A stretch of DNA of 64,000 bases. Source: an uncultured Chloroflexia bacterium. Lineage in GTDB: Bacteria > Chloroflexota > Anaerolineae > CG2-30-64-16. Positions within the stretch are counted from its first letter, which is position 1. Each line of letters starts with the position of its first letter. Position numbers and translations under genes: made by a program. The DNA lies in contig CAWEMM010000008.1 in assembly GCA_963810095.1 (NCBI GenBank), positions 64,001 through 128,000 of the forward strand, in the 5' to 3' direction. Positions 35,131-51,116 of this stretch are shown here, piece by piece. Below the pieces are notes generated by a model. The model was not told where the DNA came from and searched no databases. It saw only the letters and a list, made by a program, of their open reading frames with translations.

Positions 35131-36186
35131 GTGGCAATCCAGGAAACAACGCCAGCGCGGCATAGCCTGCGCGCCGATCTGCCGGTCTACGGCAAGCTCG
35201 CCGCTATCGCCCTGCTGTGGTGGGCGGCCTATTCCGTGTTGCTGCCGGTCAGCCAGTGGCTGACCTACAACGTGCTCGGGTTGGAGCGTGGCTCGCAGGT
35301 GGGCGAGTCGGTGGCCTTTTTCCTCTACGACGTGCCCAAAATCCTGCTCCTGCTCGCGGGCATGATCTTTCTGATCAGCATTGTGCGCACCTTTTTCAGC
35401 CCCGAGCGCACGCGAGCGCTGTTGGGTGGCAAGCGCCAGGGGCTGGGTAACGTGCTGGCGGCCACGCTCGGCATCGTGACCCCCTTCTGCTCCTGCTCGG
35501 CCGTGCCGCTCTTCATCGGGTTTGTCGAGTCGGGCATTCCGCTGGGGGTCACCTTCTCCTTCCTGATCGCCGCGCCGCTGATCAACGAGGTGGCGGTGAT
35601 TATGCTGGGCGGCCTGTTCGGCTGGCGGGTCGCGGCGCTGTATATCGGTACGGGCCTGGTGATCGCCATCGGCGCCGGCTTCGTCATCGGCCGCTTCCAC
35701 CTGGAGCGCTATGTCGAAGATTTCGTCTGGCAGTTGCAGATGGGCGCGAGCGGCCCGCAGGAGCGCCTCAGCTGGCCGGAGCGCATCAGCCGGGCCACGG
35801 ACAGCGTCAAGGAGATCGTCGGCAAGGTCTGGCCCTATGTCATCGTCGGCATTGGGATCGGCGCAGCCATCCACGGCTTCGTGCCCGAGAGCGCCCTGGC
35901 GAACATCATGGGCAAACAGGCGTGGTGGAGCGTGCCGGCGGCCGTACTGCTGGGCATCCCGTTGTATTCCAACGCGGCGGGGGTCATCCCCATCGTCGGC
36001 GCGCTGATCGAGAAAGGCGCCAGCGTGGGCACCGCACTGGCGTTCATGATGGCAGTGGTGGGCCTGAGCCTGCCCGAGATGATCATCCTGCGCCGGGTGC
36101 TCAAACCGCAACTGATCGCGGTCTTCATCGGCGTGCTGGCGCTGGCCATCATCTTTACCGGCTATCTGTTCAACCTGGTCCTGTAA
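35131..36186 (+). CDS. arsP: ArsP-type permease (DUF318)
   Basis: TPFCSCSAVP, GIPLGVTFSFL, PLYSNAAG and SLPE. Confidence 0.85.
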   Translation: MAIQETTPARHSLRADLPVYGKLAAIALLWWAAYSVLLPVSQWLTYNVLGLERGSQVGESVAFFLYDVPKILLLLAGMIFLISIVRTFFSPERTRALLGGKRQGLGNVLAATLGIVTPFCSCSAVPLFIGFVESGIPLGVTFSFLIAAPLINEVAVIMLGGLFGWRVAALYIGTGLVIAIGAGFVIGRFHLERYVEDFVWQLQMGASGPQERLSWPERISRATDSVKEIVGKVWPYVIVGIGIGAAIHGFVPESALANIMGKQAWWSVPAAVLLGIPLYSNAAGVIPIVGALIEKGASVGTALAFMMAVVGLSLPEMIILRRVLKPQLIAVFIGVLALAIIFTGYLFNLVL

Positions 36187-36203
36187 ATCAAGGAGCGCTA
36201 CCC

Positions 36204-36758
36204 TTGTCCCAAGACTGTTGTTGTCTATCTGATGATGCAGGTTCCCAAACCTGCGAGCCGACCCCGGAGATCGCAGAACGTCCCGCAACGCCCGGCGATT
36301 GTCCGATCTGCGGGCAGCACGGCAAGCTGGTAGACGGGCAGACGGTGAAGGCCCTGCTGGCGATCAGCCTGGTCCAAGTGACTCACGAGCCGTACTTATT
36401 CTGCGCCAACCCGGGTTGCGCCATTGTCTATTATGCTGCCGACGGTGAGCAAACTTTCTCCACCGCCGAGGTGCGCGAGCGGGTCTACCAGAAGGAGCCA
36501 GGCGCCGAGGACGTGTTTGTCTGCTACTGCTTCCGGCACACGCGGGACGAAATCCGCGCCGAGATCGCGGCAACCGGTCGCAGCACCGTGGTAGATGCCA
36601 TCAACGCAGGCATCCGTGCCGGCGCCTGTGCCTGTGACCTGCGCAACCCGCAAGGTTCCTGCTGCCTGGGCAACGCACGCGCCCTGGTCAAGCTTCTGTT
36701 GGCTGAAAAAGGGTCAACGGCAACAGATCGACCGGAAAACAAGAGGAGAACATCATGA
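36204..36758 (+). CDS. CopZ N-terminal-like Zn/[2Fe-2S] protein
   Basis: AAGGAG-TTG start; DCCC, CPICG, FCANPGC, VCYCF and CACDLRNPQGSCCLG. Confidence 0.75.
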   Translation: MSQDCCCLSDDAGSQTCEPTPEIAERPATPGDCPICGQHGKLVDGQTVKALLAISLVQVTHEPYLFCANPGCAIVYYAADGEQTFSTAEVRERVYQKEPGAEDVFVCYCFRHTRDEIRAEIAATGRSTVVDAINAGIRAGACACDLRNPQGSCCLGNARALVKLLLAEKGSTATDRPENKRRTS

Positions 36759-37357
36759 CGGAGCATGAAATCCTGTTGGATGCACTGAAATTCCACGGGC
36801 ACCGCTGCTGGGCCAGCGTGGCGGGCGTGCGGGTGGGATTGGCCGCGCTGCGGGCGCTCGGCGTGCAACGCTCGGGCGGCACGCAGCTCTACGCCATCAT
36901 CGAGACCGGCGAAGAACATGGCGGCATGTGCTTCGGCGACGGCGTGCAATACACCACGGGCTGCACGTTCGGCAAGGGGAACATCCGCAAGAACCCCCTC
37001 GGCAAGCTGGCATTGACCCTGATCGACAAGGACAGCAACCAGGCCGTGCGCGTCTCCTACAAGCCCACGCTGCAGAAGCAGATCGCGGCGTCAGCCTTCA
37101 TGCAGCAGCGCGCCGCCGGGTACCAGCCGGACGAGATCCCCGAGGCTGACCAGATGGAGTTGGTCAACCTGGTGTGGGACGCGCCGGAAGACGACGTCCT
37201 GACCGTGGGCGAAGTCTTCACCTACGACTGCAACTGGCTGCCTGAGGTGATGGGCTTTACAAAATGTGACTCGTGCGGCGAGCTCGCGGCCCACGCGTAC
37301 GTGCGGCTGGTCGGCGATCGCAAGGTGTGCATCCCATGTTCCGGGTACGATCGCTGA
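36755..37357 (+). CDS. FmdE family protein with C-terminal zinc finger
   Basis: FHGHRC, CFGDGVQYTTGCTFGKGN and CDSCGE...CIPC. Confidence 0.85.
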   Translation: MTEHEILLDALKFHGHRCWASVAGVRVGLAALRALGVQRSGGTQLYAIIETGEEHGGMCFGDGVQYTTGCTFGKGNIRKNPLGKLALTLIDKDSNQAVRVSYKPTLQKQIAASAFMQQRAAGYQPDEIPEADQMELVNLVWDAPEDDVLTVGEVFTYDCNWLPEVMGFTKCDSCGELAAHAYVRLVGDRKVCIPCSGYDR

Positions 37358-37358
37358 A

Positions 37359-38114
37359 ATGAGTCCGACTACCTACATCATCAGCGCCGTGTTGGTGTTC
37401 GTCTTCTCCGGCCTGCTGGCGATGGCCGGGCTGGGCGCGGCATTTCTGTTCGTGCCGCTCTTCTACTATCTCGGCGTCCCGCTGGCCGAGGCCACCCCGA
37501 CCGCCCTGCTGTTGAACGTCGTAAGCCTGTTATTTGCCACGATCAACTACTGGCGCGGCAAGCTGATCAACTTCCGGGTTGGGCTTCCGGTTTTGGTCAC
37601 AGCCGTGATCCTGTCGCCGCTCGGCGCGCGGCTGACACCGCAGATCGACAAGACAGTGCTGCTCGGACTGTTCGCGGCATTTCTGATTTTCGCCGGGTTC
37701 ATGATGCTATTCTACCGGCCGAAGAAACGCGGAGAGCCGCTCAGTCGGACGGTTGAGGTGAGCGCCGGCGTGGGCATCGGCGGCGTGGCGGGCTTCCTGG
37801 GCGGCCTGCTCGGCGTGGGCGGGGGCAATTTTATCCTGCCCGTGCTGAACTGGCTGGGGCTGGATGCAAAGGTGGCGGCTGGCACGACTGCGTTGGTGGT
37901 GGTCTTCGCATCGTTCTCGGGCTTTCTGGGTCACGCCACACTCGGCGGACTCGACCCCGTGTTCATTGGCATCATGGCTGTGATGGCTGCGGCTGGCTCC
38001 ATCGTCGGCTCACAACTGATGAAGACGAAGCTGTCCAGCGCACAACTCAAGCGCATGATCGGCGTGTTGCTGTTGCTGATCGCCGCCAAGATGATCTTTG
38101 ATCTCGTGAAGTAA
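37359..38114 (+). CDS. TauE/SafE family exporter
   Basis: AGLGAAFLFVP and GLLGVGGGNFILP repeats. Confidence 0.85.
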   Translation: MSPTTYIISAVLVFVFSGLLAMAGLGAAFLFVPLFYYLGVPLAEATPTALLLNVVSLLFATINYWRGKLINFRVGLPVLVTAVILSPLGARLTPQIDKTVLLGLFAAFLIFAGFMMLFYRPKKRGEPLSRTVEVSAGVGIGGVAGFLGGLLGVGGGNFILPVLNWLGLDAKVAAGTTALVVVFASFSGFLGHATLGGLDPVFIGIMAVMAAAGSIVGSQLMKTKLSSAQLKRMIGVLLLLIAAKMIFDLVK

Positions 38115-38172
38115 TTCGAGAGGCGGGCGCCTGGCGTTTCCGCAAATCCAAACCAAGAGAGGTACTTTCCTG

Positions 38173-38778
38173 ATGGACCGCAATGATGAACTGTACAAGG
38201 CCGGCCTGCTGCTGCACGGCCACAAGTGTCCCGCGATGCCGATGGGGCTGCGCGCCGGGCTGGCCGCGCTGGAGGCACTGGGTGCCGAGCGCGCCGCGGA
38301 CGGACAACTGACTGCGCTGATCGAGATCGACAGCGAGCACTGCGCCACCTGCTATGCAGACGGCATCCAGATGGCGACCGGCTGCACCTTCGGCAAGGGC
38401 AACATCCGCAAGCTCGGCTACGGTAAATTCGTGCTGACGCTGGTCGACAACAAGACCGGCCGCAGTGTGCGCGTCGCCACCCGCAACGAGGTGATCAAGC
38501 GCAACCAGGAATCCGAGTTCATCCAATATCGCAAGCGTGGCGTGCCGGCCTCCAAGATTGATCTGGCACTGGTCGAGCCCTACGTGGACTTCATCCTGTG
38601 CGCCCAGGCTGAGGAGTTGTTCAGAATCGGGCCGGTGACGGAGCTGAAGCTCCCGGCGGGCCGGCCGCACGACTTCAACACGATCATCTGCGCCGAGTGC
38701 GGCGAAGTCGCGGTCGAGCGGTACGCCCGGGTCAAGAACGGGCAGATCGTCTGCATGCCCTGCGCGGAGAAGAACTAA
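38173..38778 (+). CDS. FmdE family protein (second paralogue)
   Basis: LHGHKCP, CYADGIQMATGCTFGKGN and CAECGE...CMPC. Confidence 0.85.
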   Translation: MDRNDELYKAGLLLHGHKCPAMPMGLRAGLAALEALGAERAADGQLTALIEIDSEHCATCYADGIQMATGCTFGKGNIRKLGYGKFVLTLVDNKTGRSVRVATRNEVIKRNQESEFIQYRKRGVPASKIDLALVEPYVDFILCAQAEELFRIGPVTELKLPAGRPHDFNTIICAECGEVAVERYARVKNGQIVCMPCAEKN

Positions 38779-39182
38779 TGAAAATCGCAGCAGTCACAGA
38801 CGACGGCATTACCATCAGTCAACATTTCGGACGCGCACCCTACTACCTGGTGCTCACGGTCGAGGATGGACGCATCGTGAGCCGCGAGCAGCGCGAGAAG
38901 ATCGCCCATGGTCAGGGGCACAGCCACGGCCAGCCGAACGAGGTGCACCTGGCGGATCAGCCCCACGGCTTCGACCCGGCGTCACAGGACACGCACAGCC
39001 GCATGGCCGCGCCGATAAGCGATTGCCAGATGCTGCTGGCGCGCGGTATGGGGGCCGGGGCGTACGCCAGTTTGGAACAAGCCGGCATTCGACCCATTCT
39101 AACGACCCTCGTCAATATTGAGGAAGCCGCCCTGCAAGCGGCGGCTGGAACGATCGTCGACCACCGCGAACGGCTGCACTAG
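38778..39182 (+). CDS. NifB/NifX-family FeMo-cofactor-binding domain protein
   Basis: MKIA...SQHFGRAPYY...GMGAGA; His-rich insert HGQGHSH. Confidence 0.85.
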   Translation: MKIAAVTDDGITISQHFGRAPYYLVLTVEDGRIVSREQREKIAHGQGHSHGQPNEVHLADQPHGFDPASQDTHSRMAAPISDCQMLLARGMGAGAYASLEQAGIRPILTTLVNIEEAALQAAAGTIVDHRERLH

Positions 39183-39212
39183 AAACATCGCTGGTTGTCG
39201 CAAGGGGAAATC

Positions 39213-39971
39213 ATGGATCTGGATGCAATTCGAATCATGGCCGTGCAGATGCACGACATCCTTCAGTTGTCAGCCCCGGCCATCGGCGTCAGCCTTCTGT
39301 TGGAGAGACCAGACGAGGGTATGGGCCGAGCGTTGTCGCAGTATCGCTTCTGCCAGGCGCTGATGCGTGCGCGACACGGTGAAACGGTCACTCTGGACGG
39401 TGGTGGCCTGACATGTCCGGCCGCTGCGGCGGCCTTCGGCTTCCGGCCCTTGCCCGAGGGGTTGAGAAACGGTAGCGGCCTGGTTGGTTTCGGCATCGTG
39501 CAAGACCCGGCCGTCGGACAAAGGATGTTTGAAGAAATGCCGCGGCTAGCGCCCAACCAGATCCACAGCCTGCTCATTTTCCCACTCTCCGACGCGCCGG
39601 TCGTCCCTGACGTGATCGTCGTGGAAGATGAAGTCGAGAAGTTGATGTGGATAAACCTGGCCTACCTGCATGCTAGCGGCGGGAAGCGCATCCACAGCTC
39701 GACCGCCATCCTGCAGGCCACGTGCGTCGATGCCGCCATCATCCCGTATCTCGATAAACGCTTGAACTTCAGCTACGGATGCTATGGCTGCCGCGATGCT
39801 ACCGACCTGGCTGGCTCTGAGACAGTGGTCGGCTTCCCGATCTCCGTGCTGCCTGATATCGTGAAGCATCTTGAATTCCTGGCGCAAAAAGCGATCCCGA
39901 CCTCGCGCGCCAAAAAAGCCTGGGGAGCGCTCAAGGCGAAAGAGCTTCAAGCGGTCGCGACGAACTCCTAA
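39213..39971 (+). CDS. DUF169 family protein
   Basis: RFCQAL, CPAAAAAFG, QATCVDA and SYGCYGCRD. Confidence 0.8.
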   Translation: MDLDAIRIMAVQMHDILQLSAPAIGVSLLLERPDEGMGRALSQYRFCQALMRARHGETVTLDGGGLTCPAAAAAFGFRPLPEGLRNGSGLVGFGIVQDPAVGQRMFEEMPRLAPNQIHSLLIFPLSDAPVVPDVIVVEDEVEKLMWINLAYLHASGGKRIHSSTAILQATCVDAAIIPYLDKRLNFSYGCYGCRDATDLAGSETVVGFPISVLPDIVKHLEFLAQKAIPTSRAKKAWGALKAKELQAVATNS

Positions 39972-40039: not shown

Positions 40040-40258
40040 GTGCAACCTTTCATCAACAAACGCCGGTGCCCGGCGCAAGACCAAATCTGCAAGGCGATCC
40101 CGGCCTGCCCGCACGGGGCGATCAGCTATGTCGCCGACGAGACCGAGCGCCTGGGCGGCAAGATTGTCTTCGACTACGACAAGTGCGACGGCTGCGGAAT
40201 CTGCGTGACTGAGTGCTGTGGCAGCGCGATCGATATGCAGCAAGTCGTCGCAACATGA
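40040..40258 (+). CDS. 4Fe-4S ferredoxin
   Basis: C....C....CP and CDGCGICVTECC. Confidence 0.8.
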   Translation: MQPFINKRRCPAQDQICKAIPACPHGAISYVADETERLGGKIVFDYDKCDGCGICVTECCGSAIDMQQVVAT

Positions 40259-40291
40259 CGCGGCTCATGGTCACGCGAGGAAAAACAGGCA

Positions 40292-40319
40292 TATGATGGT
40301 GTATGCAGTAAGGCATATA
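40292..40319 (+). promoter_or_regulatory. -10 box and ArsR-like 7-6-7 operator before gcvH
   Basis: TATGAT at 40292; TGTATGC-AGTAAG-GCATATA. Confidence 0.55.
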
Positions 40320-40380
40320 TAGAAATACCCGCATACGGCGCCGGGCACAAGACGCGTGCGCAGCGACGAAGGAGATCGAT

Positions 40381-40830
40381 GTGAGCACCGAGTATCTCGA
40401 AACGACGGTCGACAAGTTCATCTTTCGGGTCAAGGTCGGTTACCTGTACAGCGAAGCCGGCGTGTGGGTGGATTTCGATCCGTCCCGCCAGATCGCACGT
40501 ACGGGCCTAACTGACTTCCGCCAGCAGGCGAGCGGGGACGTCGCGTTCGTCGACCTGCCGGCGGCCGGCGCCACCGTCGCAAGCGGCGGTGACCTGGCGA
40601 ACATCGAAACGATCAAGGTCGATCTCGTCGTGCCGGCGCCGCTAGAGGGCACGGTCGTGGCGGGCAACGAGGCGCTCGGCGACGCTCCGGAACTGATTAA
40701 CCAGCAGCCGTACGGCGATGGCTGGCTGGTCGAACTAACGCCGGCCGCCTGGCCGGCGCCCGGCCTGCTTGACGCGGCAGCCTACCTGGCCGTGATGCAA
40801 GCGCAGGCGGAAGCTGAGGCGAAGCAATGA
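40381..40830 (+). CDS. stand-alone GcvH-like lipoyl carrier protein
   Basis: GLTDF.Q..SGDVAFVDLP, IETIK (putative lipoyl Lys79), PELINQQPYGDGWL; no gcvP/gcvT in the window. Confidence 0.8.
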   Translation: MSTEYLETTVDKFIFRVKVGYLYSEAGVWVDFDPSRQIARTGLTDFRQQASGDVAFVDLPAAGATVASGGDLANIETIKVDLVVPAPLEGTVVAGNEALGDAPELINQQPYGDGWLVELTPAAWPAPGLLDAAAYLAVMQAQAEAEAKQ

Positions 40831-41294
40831 GTGATGAAGCTGAGCAAGCGTCGCTCCCAGGAGCGGCTCGCACAGTGTGCATCGTGCCCTGTAGCGGGAT
40901 TGGCAAAACGTACGGCACGGTGACGCGCGAGGCAGCGTACGTCGTGAGCGAAGAGTTGCGACCGGACACCACGAAGGTGGTCCCCCTCTCGCTGCTCGTG
41001 CTCGGCGACGAGGCGGCGCGTGAGGCCGTGCAGGCGGCGCCAGCGCTCACGCTGGACGGCTGCAAGTTGGCCTGTGCGACGAACCTCGTGCGCCAGTCTG
41101 GGGGCATCGTGGCGCAGGACTTCGTCGTGCTCGACACGTTCCGGAAGAACCGGACGCTCAAGCCGGCGGGCATCGCCGAGCTAAACGACGGCGGGCTGGC
41201 CCTGGCGCGGGCGCTGGCAGACGAGGTCGCGGCGGCGGTAGATGCCGCCGTAGCGACGGATGGTTCATCGACTGGAGGAGAGCACGATGCCTAA
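40827..41294 (+). CDS. DGC-domain putative zinc-binding protein
   Basis: PCSG...LDGCKLACA. Confidence 0.8.
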   Translation: MSDEAEQASLPGAARTVCIVPCSGIGKTYGTVTREAAYVVSEELRPDTTKVVPLSLLVLGDEAAREAVQAAPALTLDGCKLACATNLVRQSGGIVAQDFVVLDTFRKNRTLKPAGIAELNDGGLALARALADEVAAAVDAAVATDGSSTGGEHDA

Positions 41295-42022
41295 TCTACC
41301 AAAGCGCAAGGTGGGCATCGTCGCCTGTTCGGGCGAGGAGCTGCCCGGCGGCACGGTCACCCGGCTGGCGGCGCTCAAGGTGCTCGAGCATCTGCGACCG
41401 GATCAGACGGTGACAATCTGCTTGCCGCTATTCCTGGCCGGTGGCGAAGGCGACCGGGCATTTGCGAAGTTCTACCCGACCATCGCCGTCGACGGCTGCG
41501 AGAAGCGCTGCGCCGCCCGGGCGACCGAGATGTACAGCAATAAGCCGGCGGCAAGCATCGTGCTGGACGAGCTGCTGACCGAGCACGGCCTGCCGCAGCC
41601 GATAGGGAAGCGCCGGCTGACGCGCGAGAGCGGCCGGGCGGTGGATGCACTGGCCGATGCCATCGCGGTGGAAGTGGATCACTTGATGGCGGTGCGCTGG
41701 AGCCGCAGCGAAGGTACGATCCTGGAGGCCGGCCCGGATGCCGGAGCGGTCAGCACGTCGGCCTGCGCCTGTGGTTCGGGAATCCCTGTGACGACGGTGC
41801 AAGTGGGCGAGCAAGCCGTCGAGATCATGGCCCTCGTGCCGATCATGGAACTGGCTTATCAGCAAGGGTTGCGCGCCAACGGCGCTCTGCCGCCGCAGAT
41901 ACTTCAGACGGTGCAGGTGTACAACACCGTGCCCGCCGGCGAGGAAGCGCTGTTACGCGCAAGCCGTTGAACTGGCGTGGGCGGCGTACTGTATGGAACG
42001 TGAGGGGCAGAACCATGGCTAA
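41287..42022 (+). CDS. DGC-domain protein with C-terminal extension (frameshift near 41955)
   Basis: ACSG...ICLP...VDGCEKRCA; linker SACACGSG. Confidence 0.75.
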
Positions 42023-42491
42023 GACGGCGACGTATCACACTGAGGTCGAGTGGCGCGGGGAACACACGGGGCAGATCGTCATGGGCAACGGGCCGGAGAT
42101 GCCGTTCTCAGCCCCGCCCGATGCTTACGGGCAGGCCGGGGTGCTGACGCCGGAGGATGCTTTCGTGGCCGCGGCCAACACCTGCGTCATGATGATGTTC
42201 CTGTGGGCGTGTGAACGGTTCAAGATTGACCTGGTCGACTACCGCTGCCGGACCGAAGGGACCAAGAAGATCGAGCTCGACCGGACCGAAATCTTCACGC
42301 ACCTGCGCTTCTGGCCGCAGATTACCGTGCGCGCCGATGTCGACGGGGATGCGAGCAGCACCGAAAAGAGGGTTCACAAAGCCCTTGCGTCCGCCCAGAA
42401 GTACAGCCTCGTCGCCAACTCGGTCAAGAGCGAGATTGTCGTGGAACCTCACATCACGGTTCTCGCCGGCGCCGCCGAGGCAGTGCGATGA
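42015..42491 (+). CDS. OsmC/Ohr family protein
   Basis: FSAPP..G....TPEDAFVAAANTC; the second-Cys position reads KYSLVANS. Confidence 0.8.
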   Translation: MAKTATYHTEVEWRGEHTGQIVMGNGPEMPFSAPPDAYGQAGVLTPEDAFVAAANTCVMMMFLWACERFKIDLVDYRCRTEGTKKIELDRTEIFTHLRFWPQITVRADVDGDASSTEKRVHKALASAQKYSLVANSVKSEIVVEPHITVLAGAAEAVR

Positions 42492-42841
42492 CGACCGACT
42501 ACCAAGCCTATTACAAGCACCTGGAAGAGCGCCTGACCGAGTTGGGCCGGGAGCAGCCCGGTCCGATGAGCGGCTTCGCCCGGTTGCACAAGAAGGCCGT
42601 CGAGGACGGCGCGCTCAGTGCCAAGACCAAGGAACTGATGGCATTGGCGATCAGCATCGCGGTGCGCTGCGAGGGGTGTATCGCCTATCACGTCCACGCT
42701 GCGATTGCTGCGGGCGCGACACGGCCCGAGCTGCTGGAGACGATTAGCGTCGCCGTCTTAATGGGCGGCGGCCCGGCCTCCATGTACGCGGCGCATGCGC
42801 TGGATGCGATCGAGCAGTTCGGAGCGCCGCCCGGAAGCTGA
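42488..42841 (+). CDS. AhpD/CMD family protein
   Basis: GALSAKTKELMALAISIAVRCEGCIAYH and MGGGP. Confidence 0.9.
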   Translation: MTTDYQAYYKHLEERLTELGREQPGPMSGFARLHKKAVEDGALSAKTKELMALAISIAVRCEGCIAYHVHAAIAAGATRPELLETISVAVLMGGGPASMYAAHALDAIEQFGAPPGS

Positions 42842-42854
42842 AGAAGAGGCAACA

Positions 42855-43398
42855 GTGTCAAAGCAACGCCAGCAAGCAGCTCGAGCATCGCAAAACCAGC
42901 ACCCCGACCACGGCGGGTCGCCGTCGGGTTGGCGGCGTGCTTACCGTCCTCATCCTGGCGAGCGTAGTGCTGGCGCTGGGGGCGATCCTCCTCTTGAAGG
43001 AAGGGCGGCCGCCGACGTCAACGATCGTCAACCCGCCGCCCGGCAGCGCTGCGCCGGCCGGCAGCGCGACGGCGGTCGGATCGGCAGCGGACCAGTTGCA
43101 GGCGGCGCTGGCGGCAAACAAGCCGGCCCTCGTCTTCATGCATTCGACCACCTGCCAGTCCTGCATCGACATGATGCATGTCGTGGATCAGGTTTACCCG
43201 GAGTTTGCCGCTCAGATCGCCCTCGTGGATGTCGATGTCTATGACGAGGCTAACGAACCGCTGATGCAAGTGCTGGGCCTACGCTATATACCCACGATCG
43301 TCGTGTATGACCGGGCCGGCAAGGCCGCACAGAATGTGGGCGCCATGAAAGCCGATGCCTTCCGCACTTTCCTGCGCCAGCGCGCCTTGGGCGGCTGA
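42855..43398 (+). CDS. membrane-anchored thioredoxin-fold protein (5' frameshift)
   Basis: TM anchor, TCQSC and YIPT. Confidence 0.8.
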
Positions 43399-43399
43399 G

Positions 43400-44074
43400 A
43401 TGGACTGGGACTTTTCGGTCATCCAGCACATCTCGCCCCTGGCGATCGCGCTGGTCTTTGCGGGCGGCGTGGTGACAAGCATCGGCCCGTGTAACATGGC
43501 CATGATCCCGTTGATCATCGGCTACGTCGGTGGCAGCCGGGATTTGTCACGCGGGCGCAGCTTCGTCCTCTCCACCACCTTTGCAACCGGGCTCGCCATC
43601 ACCTTCATGATGCTGGGGGTGGTCGTGTCGTTCGTCGGCGGGCTGATCGGGACCGGCCACAAGTGGTTCTACTATGGGGTCGCCGGGGTCTGCCTGCTGA
43701 TTGGACTGCAACTGCTGGGGGTCATTCACCTGCCGATGCCCGACTTCCTGGCCGAACGCAGGCAGCGCATGGCCTGGCGGGGTGTGCCGGGAGCCATGGC
43801 GTTGGGGCTGGTCTCGGGATTGGTCGCCTCGCAATGCGCAACACCGGTATTGGCCGCGATCCTGACGTACGTTATGGCGGAAGGTGCGATCGCATACGGC
43901 GCAGCTCTGTTGTTCATTTATGCGCTCGGACGCGGGGTGCCCATCGTACTCGCGGGGACCTTTGCGGGAGTGCTCAAGCAGTTCCGCGTTTTCGGCCGCT
44001 GGTCGGGGGCGATGGAGAAGGTAAGCGGCGTGATTATCATTGGCGTGGCGTTGTACCTGGTGTGGCTGGCGTGA
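43400..44074 (+). CDS. ccdA: CcdA/DsbD-type transmembrane thiol reductase
   Basis: SIGPCN...IPL and ASQCATP; six TM helices. Confidence 0.85.
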   Translation: MDWDFSVIQHISPLAIALVFAGGVVTSIGPCNMAMIPLIIGYVGGSRDLSRGRSFVLSTTFATGLAITFMMLGVVVSFVGGLIGTGHKWFYYGVAGVCLLIGLQLLGVIHLPMPDFLAERRQRMAWRGVPGAMALGLVSGLVASQCATPVLAAILTYVMAEGAIAYGAALLFIYALGRGVPIVLAGTFAGVLKQFRVFGRWSGAMEKVSGVIIIGVALYLVWLA

Positions 44075-44096
44075 GAAACGAAAGATAAGGGGTGCG

Positions 44097-44363
44097 ATGA
44101 CGGCTACACCGCAGATCACGATATTACCGGCGCAGGGCTGCCGGCGTAGCCGCAAGCTGCTGGCATACCTGCAGGCGCATGACGTCCCTTTCACGCGCAT
44201 CGAGCTCGACTCAGCGGAAGGCGCGGCGCTGGCGGCCCAGTACGATCTGCGGGCCTCGCCCGGCATTCTGATTGATGGGGTCAGCATCAACCCGTTTGAT
44301 TTGCTGATCCAGCCAGCCTGCCGCGTGGATGAGGCGAAGGCACGCGAGCTGTTTGCTGCGTAG
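44097..44363 (+). CDS. glutaredoxin-like protein
   Basis: GCRRS (CxxS) and SPGILIDG. Confidence 0.65.
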   Translation: MTATPQITILPAQGCRRSRKLLAYLQAHDVPFTRIELDSAEGAALAAQYDLRASPGILIDGVSINPFDLLIQPACRVDEAKARELFAA

Positions 44364-44429
44364 CGCCGCGGCCGAGGGCGTACGGACGGCAGAGCACAGC
44401 CTGAACAACCCCTACCTGAAGGAACCCAT

Positions 44430-44603
44430 ATGCCGAAGGTATCTGTAGTGCTCGACGAGCAAGAGCAGCAAGAACTGCAGATGATCCTGACCGATGCGGA
44501 CGATGAGGCGGCACTGCGCTTCTTGAAGGAAGTGGTGTGGGCGCAGGTGCAGGCGGCGCGGCGCAAGGGTTTGCGCAGCCACCTGGAGGCAGGCCAGTCG
44601 TAG
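44430..44603 (+). CDS. small hypothetical protein (57 aa; below the ORF-track cutoff)
   Basis: AAGGA RBS; MPKVSVVLDEQEQQELQMILTDADDEAALRFLKEVV... Confidence 0.6.
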   Translation: MPKVSVVLDEQEQQELQMILTDADDEAALRFLKEVVWAQVQAARRKGLRSHLEAGQS

Positions 44604-44619
44604 CGCGTCGAGCGGTCGT

Positions 44620-45222
44620 GTGGAGGGCAATTTGACCAGCCGATCAGAAGATACTGAGCCTCTCGTAGGCGCCATAACCCTGGTTCGCACCTTGCCCTGC
44701 CTGGCCGAGCCGGGGAAGATCATCGTCGTCGGGGAGCCGGACGCGACGATCGACGCCGCGTTGCCACTCCTCAACGCCATCCTGCCCAATGTCATCAGCT
44801 ATTACCCCTTGGCCGGCGTCATGACATTGCGACGGCGGCCGGGGCTCATCACGCTCTATCCTCGCCGCGTCACGATCACCCAGGTGGCGGACGTGGAAGA
44901 GGGGCTAACGCTGCTGGCCGCGGTGCGCGACCTGGTCAACCAGGCCTGGTCGCGCCGGAACGAAATCCAGCCGAAGACCGAAAGCCGGCGGGTGCCTCGC
45001 CCGCTGGATGTTTACGAGCTGCTGCCGCGATCGAATTGCAGGTCGTGCGGCGCGGCGACGTGCATGGCGTTCGCCTTCGGACTTCTAGAAAGCCGCTATC
45101 AGCCCGGGGAGTGTCCTGTGCTGGGCGAGGCGGCATTCGACGCGCGGCGCCAGGCGCTCATTGACATGCTGCCGCCACAAGAAGACGGCAGCCCGCGGCC
45201 GGTCAACCTGCATGCCCTATAG
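44620..45222 (+). CDS. Fe-S-binding protein (paralogue of 33740..34300)
   Basis: LPCLAEP, LPLLNA and LLPRSNCRSCGAATCMAFA...CP. Confidence 0.8.
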   Translation: MEGNLTSRSEDTEPLVGAITLVRTLPCLAEPGKIIVVGEPDATIDAALPLLNAILPNVISYYPLAGVMTLRRRPGLITLYPRRVTITQVADVEEGLTLLAAVRDLVNQAWSRRNEIQPKTESRRVPRPLDVYELLPRSNCRSCGAATCMAFAFGLLESRYQPGECPVLGEAAFDARRQALIDMLPPQEDGSPRPVNLHAL

Positions 45223-45231
45223 GGGCAGAAA

Positions 45232-45912
45232 GTGAGCAGTCCCGTGTCCGTCATTACCATCTCCCGGGAGTTCGGAAGCGTCGAGGACGACTTTGGTGAG
45301 CGCGTGGCACACGAGCTGGGGTACCACTGCGTGTGCAAAGAGTTTATCGCCGACGTGTTAGCGCAATACGGCTTGATCGAGTTCGAGCGGGAATACGAAT
45401 CCAAGCCGGGCTTCTGGAACAGCCTGAGTGCCCTGCGGGGTGAGCGACGCAGCGACGTTGTGGCCATGCTCAATCAGGTGCTACAAGCGGTTGCCAAGCA
45501 CGGCAACGTGGTTATCCAGGGGCGCAGCGGCTTTGCGGCCCTGCGCGGGTTGGCCGACGTCTTGCACGTGCGCCTGCAAGCCCCGCTCGAGGCGCGTATC
45601 GAGCGTGTGGCCGGAGAACAGCGCATTACGCTCGACGAGGCTAGCCGGATCGTGAAGGAAGGCGACGGGGTGCGGACGGGGTTCGTGGAAGGGTTCTACG
45701 GGGTGCCGTGGAATTCTATCCAGGCATTCGATCTCGTAATCAACACCCAAAAGGTCGCCACTGAAGCAGCTGTAGCCTGGGTAGCTGAGGCGGCAAGAGC
45801 GCTCGCACTGCGCCCGACCGGCGGTCAGCCGTGCGCCGGCGACCTGGCAGTAGACGACGTTCTGGCGCGGGAGGTCGTGCGGCAGCTCGAGAAGCCTGCG
45901 CGGGCGTGCTGA
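45232..45912 (+). CDS. cytidylate kinase-like family protein
   Basis: ITISREFGS, GNVVIQGR, LHVRLQAP and FDLVINT. Confidence 0.8.
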   Translation: MSSPVSVITISREFGSVEDDFGERVAHELGYHCVCKEFIADVLAQYGLIEFEREYESKPGFWNSLSALRGERRSDVVAMLNQVLQAVAKHGNVVIQGRSGFAALRGLADVLHVRLQAPLEARIERVAGEQRITLDEASRIVKEGDGVRTGFVEGFYGVPWNSIQAFDLVINTQKVATEAAVAWVAEAARALALRPTGGQPCAGDLAVDDVLAREVVRQLEKPARAC

Positions 45913-46070: not shown

Positions 46071-46130
46071 TTGACAGGCAGTGGGCTGCGTGGTAATATG
46101 TCGGACATCGATATATAGACCTCCGACATA
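46071..46130 (+). promoter_or_regulatory. sigma70 promoter with PadR operator
   Basis: TTGACA-N17-TAATAT; inverted repeat TATGTCGGA...TCCGACATA. Confidence 0.75.
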
Positions 46131-46141
46131 AGAGAGGCGTC

Positions 46142-46504
46142 ATGCCACTAGAAGACCCAGGATATTGGAAAGCGCTCGTCAACATGGGCCTGTCGCGCTT
46201 CTTCGTGCTCCGCACGTTACATGAGCGTCCAACGCACGGCTATGCGCTGCTCGACAGCCTCAGTATCTTCACGGAGGGTTGCTGTACCCCCGCCTATGGC
46301 ACGATCTACCCGATCTTGAAGGAACTCGTGGAGGGCGACTATGCGCGAGTAACTGTGGAGTCCGATGGCGGGCGCCAGCGCAAAGTATACGAGCTGACCC
46401 CGCGCGGCGAACTAGCCTACCAGACGGCCATGCAGACCTGGCAGGAAGTGCTCCCCTACATCGAACGCGCTGTGCGAGAAAGCAAAGAGGCGATCAATGA
46501 CTGA
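46142..46504 (+). CDS. PadR family regulator
   Basis: HGYAL, GTIYPILKEL and RKVYELTPRG. Confidence 0.9.
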   Translation: MPLEDPGYWKALVNMGLSRFFVLRTLHERPTHGYALLDSLSIFTEGCCTPAYGTIYPILKELVEGDYARVTVESDGGRQRKVYELTPRGELAYQTAMQTWQEVLPYIERAVRESKEAIND

Positions 46505-47435
46505 CACGCTACTTCGTTCCGGACAGTTCTTTCTGACCATCCTGGTCGAATTGATCCCACTGTTCCTTATCGTCACGTTCCTTTCCGGGCTCGCGCTGGA
46601 GTACATCTCGCCCGAGAAGCTGCGCCAGGGGCTGAGCGGTAGAAAAGGCATCGTCGGCCAGACGGCGGCTATGGGACTTGGCTGGGTGACGCCCTTCTGT
46701 TCTTGCTCCACGATCCCGATCCTGGCGAGCATGGTGAAGGCCGGCATCCCCATTGGGATTATGACCACCTTTCTGTATGCCTCGCCGTATCCCGTCGAAA
46801 TCGCGATCCCCATCCTGGCGCCCCTGTTCGGCGTGCCTACGGCGGCGGCATTCATGTTCGCGGGCGGCGCGATCGCCCTGACCATGGGCGTCGTCGTGGA
46901 GCACCTCGGGTGGCAACGCCAGATCAAGACCGCGGTCATCGAAAGCAGCGCGGGTGGGTTGGGCGATGCCAGCATCGACCTGGCCGGTGTTGGCCTGGTC
47001 CTCGCGCTGGACGACAGCTTCAGGGGCAAGGCCACGCGTGCGGGTGCATACACGCTGGACTTCGCCCGCAGACTGCTGCCGATCATCATCGTCAGCAGCG
47101 CCATCGGGGCGCTGATCTACGGCTTCATTCCTGAGGAGTGGATCCTGCGCTATGCGGGCGGCACGAGCCTGTTGGTCGTCCCCATCGCCGCGCTCATCGG
47201 CGTTCCTCTCTACGTCAACGCGGCAGCCGTCGTGCCGATCATCTACTCGCTCTCGCTAAAGGGCATGAGCGAGGGCGCCGTGATCGCCTTCCTGATCACC
47301 GCCACGACTATCAGCCCGCCCGAGATCATCATGTTGTCTGCCCTTTTCAAGCAGAAGTATGTCTGGGCGTTTGTCCTGGCCATGATCGTCGGTGCCATCA
47401 TCACCGGCTACCTGTTCAACCTGATTGCTCGCTAG
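46497..47435 (+). CDS. arsP: ArsP-type permease (DUF318)
   Basis: TPFCSCSTIP, PLYVNAAA and SPPE. Confidence 0.8.
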   Translation: MTDTLLRSGQFFLTILVELIPLFLIVTFLSGLALEYISPEKLRQGLSGRKGIVGQTAAMGLGWVTPFCSCSTIPILASMVKAGIPIGIMTTFLYASPYPVEIAIPILAPLFGVPTAAAFMFAGGAIALTMGVVVEHLGWQRQIKTAVIESSAGGLGDASIDLAGVGLVLALDDSFRGKATRAGAYTLDFARRLLPIIIVSSAIGALIYGFIPEEWILRYAGGTSLLVVPIAALIGVPLYVNAAAVVPIIYSLSLKGMSEGAVIAFLITATTISPPEIIMLSALFKQKYVWAFVLAMIVGAIITGYLFNLIAR

Positions 47436-47458
47436 TCACACCAACGGAGGATGATCCA

Positions 47459-47800
47459 ATGTCGGATTCCAAGGCGCCGGAAGTCATTACGGTCTCGGGC
47501 GCATGCTGTGCGCCGCAGATGGCGAAGCTGGATCAAGCGCTGGAGAAGGCCCTGCAACAGGCTTTCACGGACCTGGGCCTGACCATCGACGTGCGCAAAG
47601 CAAGCCTCAGCGCCGTGCTGAACAGCGAACAGGCGCTACCGTCGAAGGAGCGCCAGCAAATGCTCGCACTGTTCCAGCGCTACGGCACTCGCTGCACACC
47701 CACCGTGTTCATCAACGGGCAAGTCCGTTTTGCCGGCGTGCCGCCGAGCGTCCAGCAGATCAAGGATGCGCTGCAGGCCGTTGTCGGTGAGCAGGCCTGA
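47459..47800 (+). CDS. ArsD/thioredoxin-like Cys-pair protein
   Basis: GACC and CTPTVFING. Confidence 0.55.
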   Translation: MSDSKAPEVITVSGACCAPQMAKLDQALEKALQQAFTDLGLTIDVRKASLSAVLNSEQALPSKERQQMLALFQRYGTRCTPTVFINGQVRFAGVPPSVQQIKDALQAVVGEQA

Positions 47801-47845
47801 CGCCGGCCGGAAATGACCTGCGCAACGAACCCCAGGAGAGTACCG

Positions 47846-48067
47846 ATGCCAAACTACGAGTATATGTGCCGAGAGTGCGGCAAGCTGTTTGAAGTCCAGG
47901 CAACCTTTGCCGAGAAGAGCGCCGGCCTGCAGCCGGAGTGCCCGGATTGCCATGGCATGGAGACGCACCCGGTCATTACGACCGGACTGCTCGTGCATGC
48001 AAGCCCCGGGCGGTCTGGCGGGAGCTGCTGTGGTCCCGATTCCGGACCATCAGGATGCTGTGGGTAG
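47846..48067 (+). CDS. FmdB-type zinc ribbon protein
   Basis: MPNYEYMCRECG...CPDC; tail SCC...GCCG. Confidence 0.85.
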   Translation: MPNYEYMCRECGKLFEVQATFAEKSAGLQPECPDCHGMETHPVITTGLLVHASPGRSGGSCCGPDSGPSGCCG

Positions 48068-49463: not shown

Positions 49464-50243
49464 ATGAGCACGTATCCTAACGGTCGCGCACCGGAAATCT
49501 TCAGGCTGCTGGCGAACGATTTACGTTGGCAGCTGATCGTCGCGCTTGCCCGATCGGACCTTAAGGTGCAGGAATTGGCCGCTCGGACGGACCGGCCACA
49601 AAACCTCGTCTCCTATCATCTCAAGGAGCTCCGCGCGGCGGAGCTGGTTGTCGAGCGGCGTAGCAGCGCAGACGCGCGCGACGTCTACTATAGTCTCGAC
49701 CTCGGCCGGCTCCGCGACCGATTGCTCGAGAGTGGGCAAGTCCTCCATGCAGTTCTGGGAAGCTCCGGTCGGTCATCACGGATAATCGCCGAACGGGAAT
49801 TGCCCGTATCGGTCCTATTCTTATGCACCCGCAATAGTGCGCGCTCCCAGATGGCCGAAGCCCTACTACGGGCGCGCGGTCCGGCGTCGCTGCACGTCTG
49901 CAGCGCAGGCAGTGAGCCGGCTGCTGTTCATCCGTTGGCAATCGAAGCGATGGCCGAGATGGGCATTGACCTGCGCGGGCACGTGGCGAAGCACTTTGAG
50001 CAGCTCGTGGGGCAACACTTCGACTATGTGATCACGGTATGCGACCGCGTGCGCGAGGTCTGCCCCGTCTTTGCGGACGAATCCGAAGCGATCCACTGGA
50101 GCTTGCCCGACCCTGCAGCCGTGACTGGCTCGCCGGCCGAGCGCTATAAGGCGTTCCGGGAGACCGCCGCGGAGCTCACTACCCGCATTGATTTCCTATT
50201 GCCAGCCCTATTGAGTGACTATTCGAAAGGAAGAGACGCGTGA
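49464..50243 (+). CDS. ArsR-ArsC (LMW-PTP) fusion
   Basis: N-terminal wHTH (VSYHLKELR) plus CTRNSARS, TVCD..CP and HW..DP. Confidence 0.9.
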   Translation: MSTYPNGRAPEIFRLLANDLRWQLIVALARSDLKVQELAARTDRPQNLVSYHLKELRAAELVVERRSSADARDVYYSLDLGRLRDRLLESGQVLHAVLGSSGRSSRIIAERELPVSVLFLCTRNSARSQMAEALLRARGPASLHVCSAGSEPAAVHPLAIEAMAEMGIDLRGHVAKHFEQLVGQHFDYVITVCDRVREVCPVFADESEAIHWSLPDPAAVTGSPAERYKAFRETAAELTTRIDFLLPALLSDYSKGRDA

Positions 50244-50695: not shown

Positions 50696-51116
50696 GCGAC
50701 GAGTGTTGTTTCTATGCACCGGCAACTCCTGCCGCAGCCAATTGGCCGAAGCGATCGTCAACGCGCGCCTGGGCGATGAGTGGGAGGCGTATAGTGCGGG
50801 TACGCAGCCAGCGGGCTATGTTCACCCGTTGGCCGTGAAGGTCTTACGGGAGAACGGTATCGAGCACGAAGGGCGCTCGAAGAGTGCCAACGAGTACCGC
50901 GACATGGCGTTCGACCTTGTCGTGACGGTCTGTGACGATGCCGCCGAGAACTGCCCGGTGTGGTTGGGCAAGGGGCGGCGGGTCCACCTCGGCTTTCCCG
51001 ATCCCGCCAAGGCAACGGGCAGCGCGGACGAGGTGCTGGCCGTGTTCCGGCGCGTGAGAGACGATATTGCACTCCGGGTCACTGAGCTTCTGGAGGAGAC
51101 AAAACTCGGGGCTTGA
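50688..51116 (+). CDS. arsC: thioredoxin-coupled arsenate reductase
   Basis: CTGNSCRS and TVCD....NCP. Confidence 0.9.
   Translation: MAKRRVLFLCTGNSCRSQLAEAIVNARLGDEWEAYSAGTQPAGYVHPLAVKVLRENGIEHEGRSKSANEYRDMAFDLVVTVCDDAAENCPVWLGKGRRVHLGFPDPAKATGSADEVLAVFRRVRDDIALRVTELLEETKLGA

Follow-up and report, generated by a model that had tools for sequence, protein, structure and literature searches.

An arsenic-linked gene cassette around a GcvH-like lipoyl carrier in an uncultured Chloroflexia bacterium and its relatives

Introduction

Protein-bound lipoyl groups have been described as the biological reductants of the Ohr/OsmC proteins, whose catalysis rests on a peroxidatic Cys (Cp), a resolving Cys (Cr), an Arg and a Glu (PMC5384416, which cites Cussiol et al., 2010, for the reductants). 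For the Trichomonas vaginalis "OsmC", a member of the Ohr-like group, a possible need for the L and H proteins of the hydrogenosome has been pointed out (PMC5384416), and the same H-protein-to-OsmC role has been inferred for H. denitrificans GcvH_1, which is encoded next to OsmC (2026 preprint). Thus, in the light of the T. vaginalis and H. denitrificans reports, the link from an H-protein to OsmC is a known kind of system. Here, we describe a gene run that starts with a GcvH-like lipoyl carrier and lies among arsenic (ars) genes, at positions 40292–45912 of a 64,000-nucleotide stretch of DNA from an uncultured Chloroflexia bacterium (GenBank assembly GCA_963810095.1, contig CAWEMM010000008.1, positions 64,001–128,000); this whole stretch is called the window below.

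In mycobacteria, a relay runs from dihydrolipoyl dehydrogenase (Lpd) through DlaT (SucB) and AhpD to AhpC. GcvH-like LbpA proteins act in sulfur oxidation in the sHdr systems, where ArsR-type repressors sense sulfane sulfur (PMC6067878; PMC10332631), and GcvH-L of S. aureus is reported to promote oxidative-stress resistance (PMC12440151). Among the arsenic genes, ArsE, ArsF and ArsG have been treated as accessory ars genes (Chen, Zhang and Rosen, 2019, cited in PMC9144182). An ArsR-ArsP-ArsE-DGC operon of Pseudodesulfovibrio mercurii ND132 was among the ars operons upregulated with arsenic, and the DGC family is described in the same source by a DGC motif and four conserved Cys (10.1101/2022.10.17.512643).

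An initial annotation of the window had read the run as a nine-gene module and had proposed an undescribed lipoate-based relay, which would act as a decoy for trivalent arsenicals, repair poisoned lipoyl groups or pass electrons to OsmC and AhpD. In the present study, the run was compared with related loci in other genomes, and the readings of its role were weighed against each other.

Results

A Four-Gene Core With ArsR and ArsE Is Conserved Across Phyla

The run at 40292–45912 is tight and co-directional on the plus strand, and its gene identities were taken from a Pfam scan of the window open reading frames (ORFs). Between 40381 and 44363, the genes overlap (by ATGA or by 8 nt) or are separated by gaps of 2–95 nt, which confirms the closely spaced gene run of the initial annotation. 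It begins with the GcvH-like lipoyl carrier of 149 aa (40381–40830, plus strand; PF01597, E = 1.6e-25), the stop codon of which is overlapped (ATGA) by the start of DGC1 (40827–41294, plus strand; PF08859, E = 1.5e-13). DGC2 follows (plus strand, 41260/41287–41970 as annotated, with the orthologous reading extending to 42022; PF08859, E = 9.1e-15), and then the OsmC-like gene (41967/42015–42491, plus strand; PF02566, E = 1.1e-11).

Relatives of the carrier were sought in one genome per species; at least 586 stretches were found, and the best 80 loci were kept (L001 and following). The 120 best-listed GcvH-like relatives, which represent 90%-identity clusters, share 67–100% identity with the query. 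According to their record titles, the 80 loci belong to Chloroflexota (59), Acidobacteriota including Aminicenantes (15), Planctomycetota (5) and “Eubacteriales” (1). According to tblastn with the window proteins, DGC1 is found in 76, DGC2 in 72 and the OsmC-like protein in 68 of them. When all three partners were required in the expected place and only the loci reaching 2.1 kb or more past the 3′ end of the carrier gene were counted, the core of GcvH-like, DGC1, DGC2 and OsmC-like genes (40381–42491 in the window) was complete in 65/67 loci; L043, which is among the two exceptions, nevertheless has a DGC1-like start, which the filter missed. The usual order is GcvH-DGC1-DGC2-OsmC. Four Planctomycetota loci (L019, L034, L045 and L046) have the order GcvH-OsmC-ArsE-DGC1-DGC2, and in the fifth, L079, DGC1 falls under the detection filter. 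One carrier of the cassette, Ornatilinea apprima P3M-1, is in culture; its locus, L076, contains ArsE, GcvH-like, DGC1, DGC2, OsmC-like and AhpD genes.

The rest of the run is rarely kept: AhpD was found in 11, CcdA in 14, Trx in 5 and the FeS protein in 11 of the 80 loci, and the Grx-like gene, the 57-aa ORF and DUF169 in one locus each. The gene order of the window repeats only in its closest relatives, L001 and L003; in these two an ArsE gene lies between OsmC and AhpD, and it is missing from that place in the window. The nine-gene module of the initial annotation is thus not the unit that is conserved; what recurs is the four-gene core together with ArsR and ArsE. A tblastn search with DGC2 against 72,556 plasmid records gave no match.

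The Cassette Lies in an Arsenic-Gene Neighborhood

In the window, ars genes were identified with Pfam between approximately 30.3 and 53.2 kb on both sides of the run: ArsR, Trx_3 and Acr3 at 30303–32206; ArsR, Trx_3 and ArsP at 34363–36186; PadR, ArsP and Trx_3 at 46142–47800; and an ArsR-ArsC fusion, two ArsC, ArsR and a double ArsM at 49464–53165. The placement of the run inside an arsenic island, which had been proposed from this one sequence, therefore holds, and it extends to other genomes. Among the 37 loci with full 10-kb flanks, an ArsR-family gene is present in 36, an ArsE-type Trx_3 gene in 34, Acr3 in 19 and ArsC in 18, and at least one of Acr3, ArsC, ArsP and ArsM at 40% identity or more occurs in 25. 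An ArsE-type thioredoxin-like gene stands beside the core in 65 of all 80 loci. Taken with the completeness of the core, these counts show that the pairing of GcvH with DGC is tight and that its association with ars genes recurs (65/67 for the core; 36/37 for ArsR).

All 1438 called ORFs of the 80 loci were also clustered, and a cluster was considered recurrent if it occurred in at least three loci. A DsbD_2/CcdA-type membrane protein, whose representative scores as ArsG, forms a cluster in 21 loci; other clusters are of the ArsF family (9 loci), VKOR (5), ArsM-like methyltransferases (5), ArsD (3) and ArsA (3).

The Carrier Stands Apart From Glycine Cleavage

The lipoyl lysine of the carrier is K79, in the ETIK motif that had been noted as IETIK. 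It is aligned to the lipoyl lysine of E. coli GcvH (PDB 3a8i_E) and is invariant in 28/28 aligned homologs, so the earlier statement that the lipoyl Lys is kept proved correct. The protein has the PF01597 fold and the lipoyl lysine of the conserved hairpin that characterize GcvH, and it scores under both curated NCBIfam cut-offs for GcvH (TIGR00527, 88.8 vs. 115.85 bits; NF002270, 97.2 vs. 117 bits).

Using E. coli proteins as tblastn queries, we found no match for gcvP, gcvT, lipA, lipB or lplA in the window, nor did the Pfam scans of the window reveal any, in agreement with what had been noted there for gcvP, gcvT and lipoate ligase. Across the 80 loci (1.19 Mb), GcvP, LipA, LipB and LplA gave no match with the same kind of query, and GcvT gave one, in L072, approximately 10 kb from the carrier gene. 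AceE and AceF had no match in the window or in the 80 loci, and no genes of glycine cleavage, lipoate attachment or 2-oxoacid dehydrogenase E1/E2 were seen among the recurrent neighbor clusters. The homologs are thus not normally located beside gcvPT or 2-oxoacid dehydrogenase genes, and the separation of the carrier from glycine cleavage genes, claimed for the window, also applies to the E1/E2 genes.

One recurrent cluster is a dihydrolipoyl dehydrogenase (TIGR01350, 501 bits vs. a cut-off of 408.8). With the E. coli Lpd as a query, this enzyme was found in 9/80 loci, and in eight of them (L014, L020, L034, L047, L053, L064, L073 and L074) its gene ends just 5′ of the carrier gene on the same strand; the window itself had no homolog with this query. 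The adjacency of Lpd is the strongest indication that the carrier lysine bears a redox-cycling lipoyl group.

The OsmC-Like Protein Is Non-canonical and Is Naturally Fused to ArsM

The OsmC-like protein is the best conserved member of the core, with 58–87% identity across phyla. It scores 45.5 bits on PF02566 (cut-off 27.5), its nearest PDB sequences are 2onf and 2d7v, and in NCBIfam it has a single match, far under the cut-off. In residue numbers counted from the TTG at 41967, C73 is kept in 57/57 sequences and is aligned to the first-helix Cys of E. coli OsmC, which we take to be the peroxidatic Cys; the Glu of the PE motif is likewise kept in 57/57. At the column where E. coli OsmC, 2onf and 2d7v have a Cys, this protein has Ser147, and another Cys, C94, is conserved in 55/57 sequences. 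Therefore, this protein does not belong to the canonical 2-Cys OsmC type, and its sequence places it in a non-canonical subfamily; of the original OsmC label, the fold and the peroxidatic-position C73 stand, and the canonical 2-Cys type does not (Ser in 54/57). In L055 (9500–9961) and L060 (1973–2434), a second, canonical OsmC paralog, which keeps the second Cys, is located directly 5′ of the GcvH-like gene and accompanies the core OsmC-like gene.

Fusions were searched for among 24 long relatives of the OsmC-like protein (E ≤ 0.001) from 1500 candidates. We found nine OsmC+DGC proteins, several with 2–6 member sequences, one GcvH+OsmC protein and three in which an OsmC-like protein is joined to a methyltransferase. 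In these three (P0129, P0132 and P0135), the OsmC-like part is N-terminal and the C-terminal half is an arsenite methyltransferase, with 347, 307 and 321 bits, respectively, on NF008823 (cut-off 263), and C73, C94 and S147 are all retained. Among the long DGC1 relatives there are two GcvH+DGC proteins and two long DGC-only proteins, and the latter may represent DGC1-DGC2 fusions.

The gene that follows encodes an AhpD-like protein of the CMD family (42488–42841, plus strand; PF02627, E = 3.1e-22) with a CEGC..H motif. It scores 44.6 bits on the TIGR00778 ahpD_dom model (cut-off 27.8) and has the CMD fold with the CxxC..H motif of AhpD; its best NCBIfam models, both under the cut-off, are an arsenosugar-associated peroxidase-like protein and an ArsM/AhpD selenoprotein. 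NCBIfam curates ArsM/AhpD fusion selenoproteins, and the window protein matches that model weakly. Thus, OsmC and AhpD, both of which are lipoyl-reduced families, each occur fused to ArsM, and in the window both are encoded behind the lipoyl carrier gene.

DGC1 and DGC2 Are Paralogs With a Predicted Heterodimer Interface

The two DGC proteins are paralogs (hhalign, 99.8%). The conserved Cys are C22, C79 and C83 in DGC1 and C23, C54, C80 and C84 in DGC2, and most DGC2 orthologs also have a CxC (C169, C171) in the C-terminal domain and a C-terminal Cys. DGC2 therefore has all the features by which the family is described, and DGC1 has the motif and three of the four Cys. An AF2 model of DGC2 (mean pLDDT 81.7, confident in the DGC domain) has a three-layer alpha/beta fold, in which the Cys lie at the C-terminal ends of strands according to its secondary-structure string. 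The search of the DGC2 sequence against PDB gave nothing meaningful (E = 0.8), the ESM Atlas returned only clusters of the “zinc-binding protein family” PF08859, mostly from Chloroflexota, and no NCBIfam family matched DGC1 or DGC2 at E ≤ 0.001.

A Cys after the first strand raised the idea of a remote LMW-PTP/ArsC-like reductase. This candidate was rejected: DGC1 against the ArsC profile had an hhalign probability of 0.6%, and Foldseek yielded only generic flavodoxin-like matches (best E = 0.027, TM ≤ 0.33).

Complex prediction for DGC1 with DGC2 gave a median score of 0.77 (0.82, 0.60 and 0.77 in three runs) against 0.01 for the best control, with a contact agreement of at least 91% and a partner pLDDT of at least 82. 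In a benchmark, the 0.77 mark was reached by 116/157 solved complexes and by 2/215 mismatched pairs, counts that are only rough since own alignments were used. The two proteins are thus predicted to form a heterodimer, and the predicted interface segments hold C23, C54 and C84 of DGC2 and C22 and C83 of DGC1.

In comparison with L001 and L003, the 3′ end of the window DGC2 carries one additional nucleotide near 41953, which shifts the frame. The annotated ORF consequently ends at 41970, and the orthologous C-terminus, with its conserved Cys, continues in another frame to 42022, overlapping the OsmC start. Two more split genes with overlapping ORFs were seen in the window: the pieces of a radical SAM/SPASM gene at 32252–33650 match consecutive parts of TIGR04317, and those of an FAD_binding_3 monooxygenase at 10592–11820 match profile positions 7–136 and 138–344. 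This suggests that the three frame breaks are assembly indel errors rather than three pseudogenes.

An Operator-Like Element Is Shared With the arsR-arsE-acr3 Operon

A dyad, TATGCA ... GCATA, became visible at 40302–40335 (plus strand) when the 5′ regions of L001, L002 and L003 were aligned with that of the window; it flanks a TATATAG −10-like box (40316–40322) and lies 46 nt 5′ of the GcvH-like start codon. The element is kept 5′ of the orthologous gene in L001 and L003, and with one change in L002. A second copy of the dyad with TATATAG, at 30270–30303 (plus strand), abuts arsR (30303–30692), which is followed by Trx_3/ArsE and Acr3 (Pfam HTH_5, Trx_3 and SBF). The pattern has two matches in 64 kb against 0.24 expected, and 2/100 shuffles reached two. 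The regulators ArsR1 (30303–30692) and ArsR2 carry an ECVCH motif, and we take this CVC motif to be of the As(III)-binding type. The shared element makes co-regulation of the run with arsR-arsE-acr3 a reasonable inference for this lineage, as its exact form lies 5′ of the carrier gene only in L001 and L003 among the 80 loci.

The initial annotation had given the run its own −10 box and an ArsR-like palindrome. The conserved dyad with TATATAG and its copy at arsR support this, and the generic scans do not: a sigma-70 promoter scan gave only a weak match (40268–40297, 9/12), and an inverted-repeat search of 40240–40400 found none of 8 nt or more and only two short direct repeats. The terminator scan was uninformative: its six sites (4.0 expected) all lie on the minus strand.

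Other Genes of the Run and of Its Surroundings

Immediately 5′ of the GcvH-like gene is a small 4Fe-4S ferredoxin-like gene (40040–40258, plus strand; Pfam Fer4 families), the product of which is a possible candidate electron donor; a ferredoxin homolog is found in the same place in L002 and L075. Behind AhpD, the run continues on the plus strand with a thioredoxin (42937–43398; Pfam E = 2.8e-9) that has a hydrophobic N-terminal segment and a CQSC motif and is probably membrane-anchored and outward-facing. Next is a CcdA/DsbD-type transmembrane thiol-disulfide electron transporter (43355/43400–44074; PF02683, E = 3.8e-33), which reaches 102.9 bits on the NCBIfam DsbD subfamily, under the cut-off of the model. 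The “Grx” gene (44040/44097–44363) encodes a small thioredoxin-fold-like protein with a single CRRS motif; its Glutaredoxin match is weak (E = 0.0057; 17.3 bits vs. a cut-off of 22.9), the 44097–44363 reading has no NCBIfam match, and its one homolog among the loci is in L080. A 57-aa ORF (44430–44603) belongs to no Pfam or NCBIfam family and has a homolog of 79% identity 3′ of CcdA in L028. The run ends with a protein bearing a C-terminal PF04060 “putative Fe-S cluster” domain (44620–45222; E = 1.1e-9) and a cytidylate-kinase-like gene (45232–45912; PF13189, E = 2.9e-32). After 45912 there is a 229-nt gap, with a promoter-like site (46071–46099, 10/12) ahead of padR. Most of the genes initially named were thus recovered by Pfam; the Grx assignment falls under the cut-off, and the 57-aa ORF and the cytidylate-kinase-like gene had been left out of the module's title.

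Several neighboring genes were also recorded. A radical SAM/SPASM gene occurs in 20/80 loci, often immediately 5′ of the carrier gene, and often between arsR and the GcvH-like gene (L004, L006, L015, L021, L032, L033, L038–L040, L043, L051, L057, L076 and others). Its nearest model is a tungsten-cofactor oxidoreductase maturase (284 bits vs. a cut-off of 380), and it is not LipA-like according to tblastn. In the Planctomycetota loci (L019, L034, L045, L046 and L079), one or two ArsF-family genes and a gene of the ArsG type (DsbD_2) come after the cassette. In the window, the interval 35922–39971, 5′ of the run and behind arsR-arsE-arsP, contains a CopZ-N-like Fe-S metallochaperone, two FmdE genes, TauE, a NifX-like gene and DUF169; homologs of FmdE or the NifX-like protein are found near the cassette in L007, L015, L032, L052 and L080, and of DUF169 in L080 only.

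On the other side, 46071–48067 forms a unit of its own: it has a strong promoter-like site (TTGACA-17-TAATAT) and encodes PadR, in which a CC motif is present, together with an ArsP_1 permease, a divergent Trx_3 and an FmdB zinc ribbon. The double ArsM at 51657–53165 is a 502-aa protein with two methyltransferase domains, of which the second scores as arsenite methyltransferase; the whole protein has 343 bits on NF008823, with the cut-off at 263. Farther away, a rhodanese, a metallo-beta-lactamase (MBL)-fold gene and TauE lie side by side on the minus strand at 4521–6722, an arrangement reminiscent of persulfide or sulfite detoxification operons. Adjoining CrcB and DUF190 genes, followed by a CBS-domain gene, at 56299–57118 look like a fluoride-resistance pair.

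Discussion

Comparison With Described Systems

A peroxide-reducing system of L-protein, H-protein and OsmC in the hydrogenosomes of T. vaginalis was reportedly described by Nyvltova et al. in 2016. This system and that of H. denitrificans resemble the cassette in that a stand-alone lipoyl protein of the H type, unaccompanied by P and T proteins, is paired with the OsmC family, and the T. vaginalis one also in the use of dihydrolipoyl dehydrogenase as the electron input, given the adjacent Lpd in 8/80 relatives. However, the cassette sits in ars regulons, always with two DGC proteins; its OsmC-like protein has a Ser at the resolving Cys, a new Cys and ArsM fusions in its subfamily; and the window lacks Lpd. 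In the mycobacterial AhpD relay and in Ohr, a protein-bound dihydrolipoyl group likewise reduces a CxxC AhpD adaptor or an Ohr/OsmC thiol enzyme, and the window encodes a CxxC..H AhpD-like protein immediately after the OsmC-like gene. Unlike the mycobacterial relay, the putative lipoyl donor here is a dedicated small carrier and not an E2 subunit, the run has no AhpC, and the context is arsenic and not peroxide.

The LbpA proteins of sHdr systems are also GcvH-like mobile dithiol carriers outside glycine cleavage, under ArsR-type repressors. The partners of the cassette carrier are DGC and OsmC-like proteins instead, and no Hdr-like genes were seen near the cassette; hdr-like, sulfur transferase and sLpl/LipS genes were absent from the recurrent neighbor clusters, apart from DsrE in three loci, with sLpl and LipS1/S2 not queried directly. 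The cassette shares with known ars operons the accessory genes ArsE (beside the core in 65/80 loci), ArsF (9 loci) and the ArsG-scoring cluster (21 loci), and with P. mercurii ND132 a DGC protein of unassigned function noted inside an ars operon. Its GcvH-like/DGC pair/OsmC-like core belongs to none of the named ars determinants that we found. No description of the cassette was found in the literature searched (mostly open full texts, main text only), where the DGC protein of the ND132 ars operon is the nearest mention. The relay was thus not wholly undescribed, although the initial annotation had called it so: an H-protein feeding OsmC has been reported in T. vaginalis and inferred in H. denitrificans, and only the ars-linked cassette itself was not found described. 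H-protein/OsmC and lipoyl/AhpD relays are already known; what is new is a widespread arsenic-linked form with a DGC pair and a non-canonical OsmC.

A Proposed Electron Relay

Based on the gene content, its conservation, the ars neighborhood, the conserved residues, the natural fusions, the predicted DGC heterodimer and the shared operator-like element, we propose that the cassette encodes an ArsR-controlled electron relay around a dedicated lipoyl carrier, which serves arsenic biotransformation and not glycine cleavage; we put the probability of this reading at about one half. Lipoylation, each electron-transfer step, induction by arsenic and the terminal substrate are the parts of it that we infer. 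As(III) would release a CVC-motif ArsR from the dyad over the −10-like box at 40302–40335, and the run at 40381–45912 would be transcribed together with the arsR-arsE-acr3 operon. The GcvH-like protein would be lipoylated at K79 by a ligase encoded elsewhere, and its lipoyl disulfide would be reduced by Lpd, which adjoins the carrier gene in some relatives and would be encoded outside this window. Alternatively, a low-potential donor could supply electrons via the Cys-rich DGC1/DGC2 heterodimer.

The dihydrolipoyl arm would then reduce the OsmC-like protein (C73/C94) and the AhpD-like CxxC protein, mirroring the Lpd – H-protein – OsmC and Lpd – lipoyl-protein – AhpD relays. The electrons might be used for re-reduction of the catalytic disulfides of ArsM or ArsC, for the reduction of pentavalent (methyl)arsenicals, or for the reduction of hydroperoxides arising under arsenic stress; Trx and CcdA may pass reducing power to the outer membrane face. 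In the best-supported reading, the DGC heterodimer would be an integral, though functionally unexplained, partner of the relay. Of the three functions initially considered, the passing of electrons to OsmC and AhpD is the best supported, by the adjoining Lpd in 8/80 loci, by the presence of two lipoyl-reduced families and by the GcvH-OsmC and DGC-OsmC fusions.

Alternative Explanations

The alternative that survives best is an ordinary lipoyl-dependent hydroperoxide reductase (Lpd – H-protein – OsmC, with AhpD), co-induced with ars genes through oxidative or thiol stress and without any arsenical substrate; on balance, we consider it unlikely. Peroxidase systems of an H-protein with OsmC have precedents in T. 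vaginalis and in H. denitrificans (GcvH_1/OsmC), GcvH-L is reported to promote oxidative-stress resistance in S. aureus (PMC12440151), Lpd is adjacent in 8/80 loci, and the Cys in the peroxidatic position and the Glu are retained. However, the canonical resolving Cys is gone in 54/57 sequences, the same OsmC-like subfamily is fused to arsenite methyltransferase, and the neighborhood is nearly always one of ArsR and ArsE. Moreover, the two conserved DGC proteins have no role in the known peroxidase systems, and the separate canonical 2-Cys OsmC paralog in L055 and L060 suggests another job for the core protein. The carriers of the cassette belong mostly to lineages that are generally known from anoxic habitats, which also speaks against a peroxidase.

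Somewhat less probable still is a metalloid decoy or chaperone, which corresponds to the sequestration and repair roles of the initial annotation. Such a system would capture As(III) or MAs(III) on the dihydrolipoyl arm and the DGC Cys clusters, shield lipoyl enzymes or strip them, and pass the metalloid on to Acr3 or ArsP. Seven conserved Cys near the predicted DGC1/DGC2 interface, together with the CxC and C-terminal Cys of DGC2, the occurrence of GcvH-DGC fusions and the nearby Acr3 in 19/37 full-flank loci would fit such a role, and three-thiolate sites bind As(III) in ArsR, ArsD and ArsA. On the other hand, Lpd would be superfluous for a decoy, and the recurrent accessory genes are those of electron transfer (Lpd, ferredoxin, FeS, AhpD, Trx/CcdA and VKOR), fitting a catalytic relay over stoichiometric binding; in addition, the best-conserved member is the enzyme-like OsmC protein, with its 58–87% identity across phyla.

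A sulfur relay for persulfide or thio-arsenicals, similar to that of LbpA and controlled by a sulfane-sulfur-sensing ArsR-type repressor, seems improbable to us. The stand-alone GcvH-like LbpA and its sulfane-sulfur-sensing repressors (PMC6067878; PMC10332631) provide a precedent, TauE is found in 10/80 loci and DsrE in three, and the window has the rhodanese, MBL-fold and TauE genes at 4521–6722. Nevertheless, Hdr-like genes are missing from the recurrent neighbors, as are LplA and LipA homologs with E. coli queries (sLpl and LipS1/S2 were not queried). The neighbors are Acr3, ArsC, ArsP and ArsM, the OsmC-like protein is fused to ArsM, and the regulators carry a CVC motif, which is characteristic of As(III) sensors. 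It is very unlikely that the carrier is a housekeeping H protein of glycine cleavage beside which unrelated redox genes happen to lie: despite the PF01597 match and the lipoyl lysine, the protein is under both NCBIfam GcvH cut-offs, gcvP is beside none of the 80 homologs and gcvT appears once, approximately 10 kb off, and DGC and OsmC accompany it in a fixed gene order across phyla.

Points Against the Relay

Several observations weigh against an arsenic-serving lipoyl relay. The arsenic context is not uniform: in 12/37 full-flank loci, none of Acr3, ArsC, ArsP and ArsM reaches 40% identity within 10 kb, and ArsM is rare near the cassette (2/80 loci by tblastn, 5/80 by ORF clustering). The exact operator-like pattern lies 5′ of the GcvH-like gene in only 2/80 loci, L001 and L003, and regulators of the ArsR/SmtB family also sense other metals and sulfane sulfur. 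With regard to lipoylation and the source of electrons, no gene for lipoate ligase, lipoyl synthase or dihydrolipoyl dehydrogenase is located in the window. The resolving-Cys column of the OsmC-like protein is Ser147 in 54/57 sequences and Cys in 2/57, and no Arg is aligned to the catalytic-Arg loop, albeit in an alignment to E. coli OsmC of only 16% identity; with these two features, the protein may be altogether unlike Ohr/OsmC in its behavior.

The fusions also call for caution. The three OsmC-ArsM proteins are similar and may stem from one event of origin, and some of the single-member fusion records could be frameshift artifacts where stop and start codons overlap. Selenocysteine in place of Cys would have marked the Cys as redox-active, but none of the GcvH, DGC1, DGC2, OsmC, AhpD, ArsE, Trx, CcdA or FeS matches in the 80 loci had an in-frame stop at the position of an aligned Cys. 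As for the DGC proteins, their part in the relay is a guess: the DGC2 model had no PDB match in Foldseek at E ≤ 0.001 (best E = 0.027), which leaves the DGC fold without an informative solved relative.

Implications

Going further than the electron relay proposed above, one may tentatively regard the cassette as an unrecognized arsenic-resistance determinant with protein-bound dihydrolipoate as its working cofactor. The carrier, DGC1/DGC2 and the OsmC-like protein would then possibly form a reductase of pentavalent oxo- or thio-(methyl)arsenicals, or a dedicated reductant of ArsM. If this is true, the cassette would provide the reducing step that is missing from anaerobic arsenic methylation and methylarsenate reduction. 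We know of no enzyme to which the electron supply for arsenic methylation or methylarsenate reduction has been assigned in anaerobes, and the OsmC-like-ArsM fusion offers a concrete lead on it.

Many uncultured Chloroflexota, Acidobacteriota and Planctomycetota have the cassette, and candidate relatives of the carrier gene number at least 586. Soils, sediments and wetlands harbor these lineages in abundance, and in such habitats the methylation and mobilization of arsenic are of consequence for rice and groundwater. For the DGC domain family, which has had no known function and no informative solved structure, the cassette provides a first functional context.

In conclusion, lipoyl groups are a textbook target of arsenite, and a conserved ars-linked operon built on a dedicated lipoyl protein would reverse the picture of the lipoyl group as a mere target. 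Our analysis suggests that the bacteria that carry this cassette use the arsenic-poisoned cofactor within their own arsenic defense.

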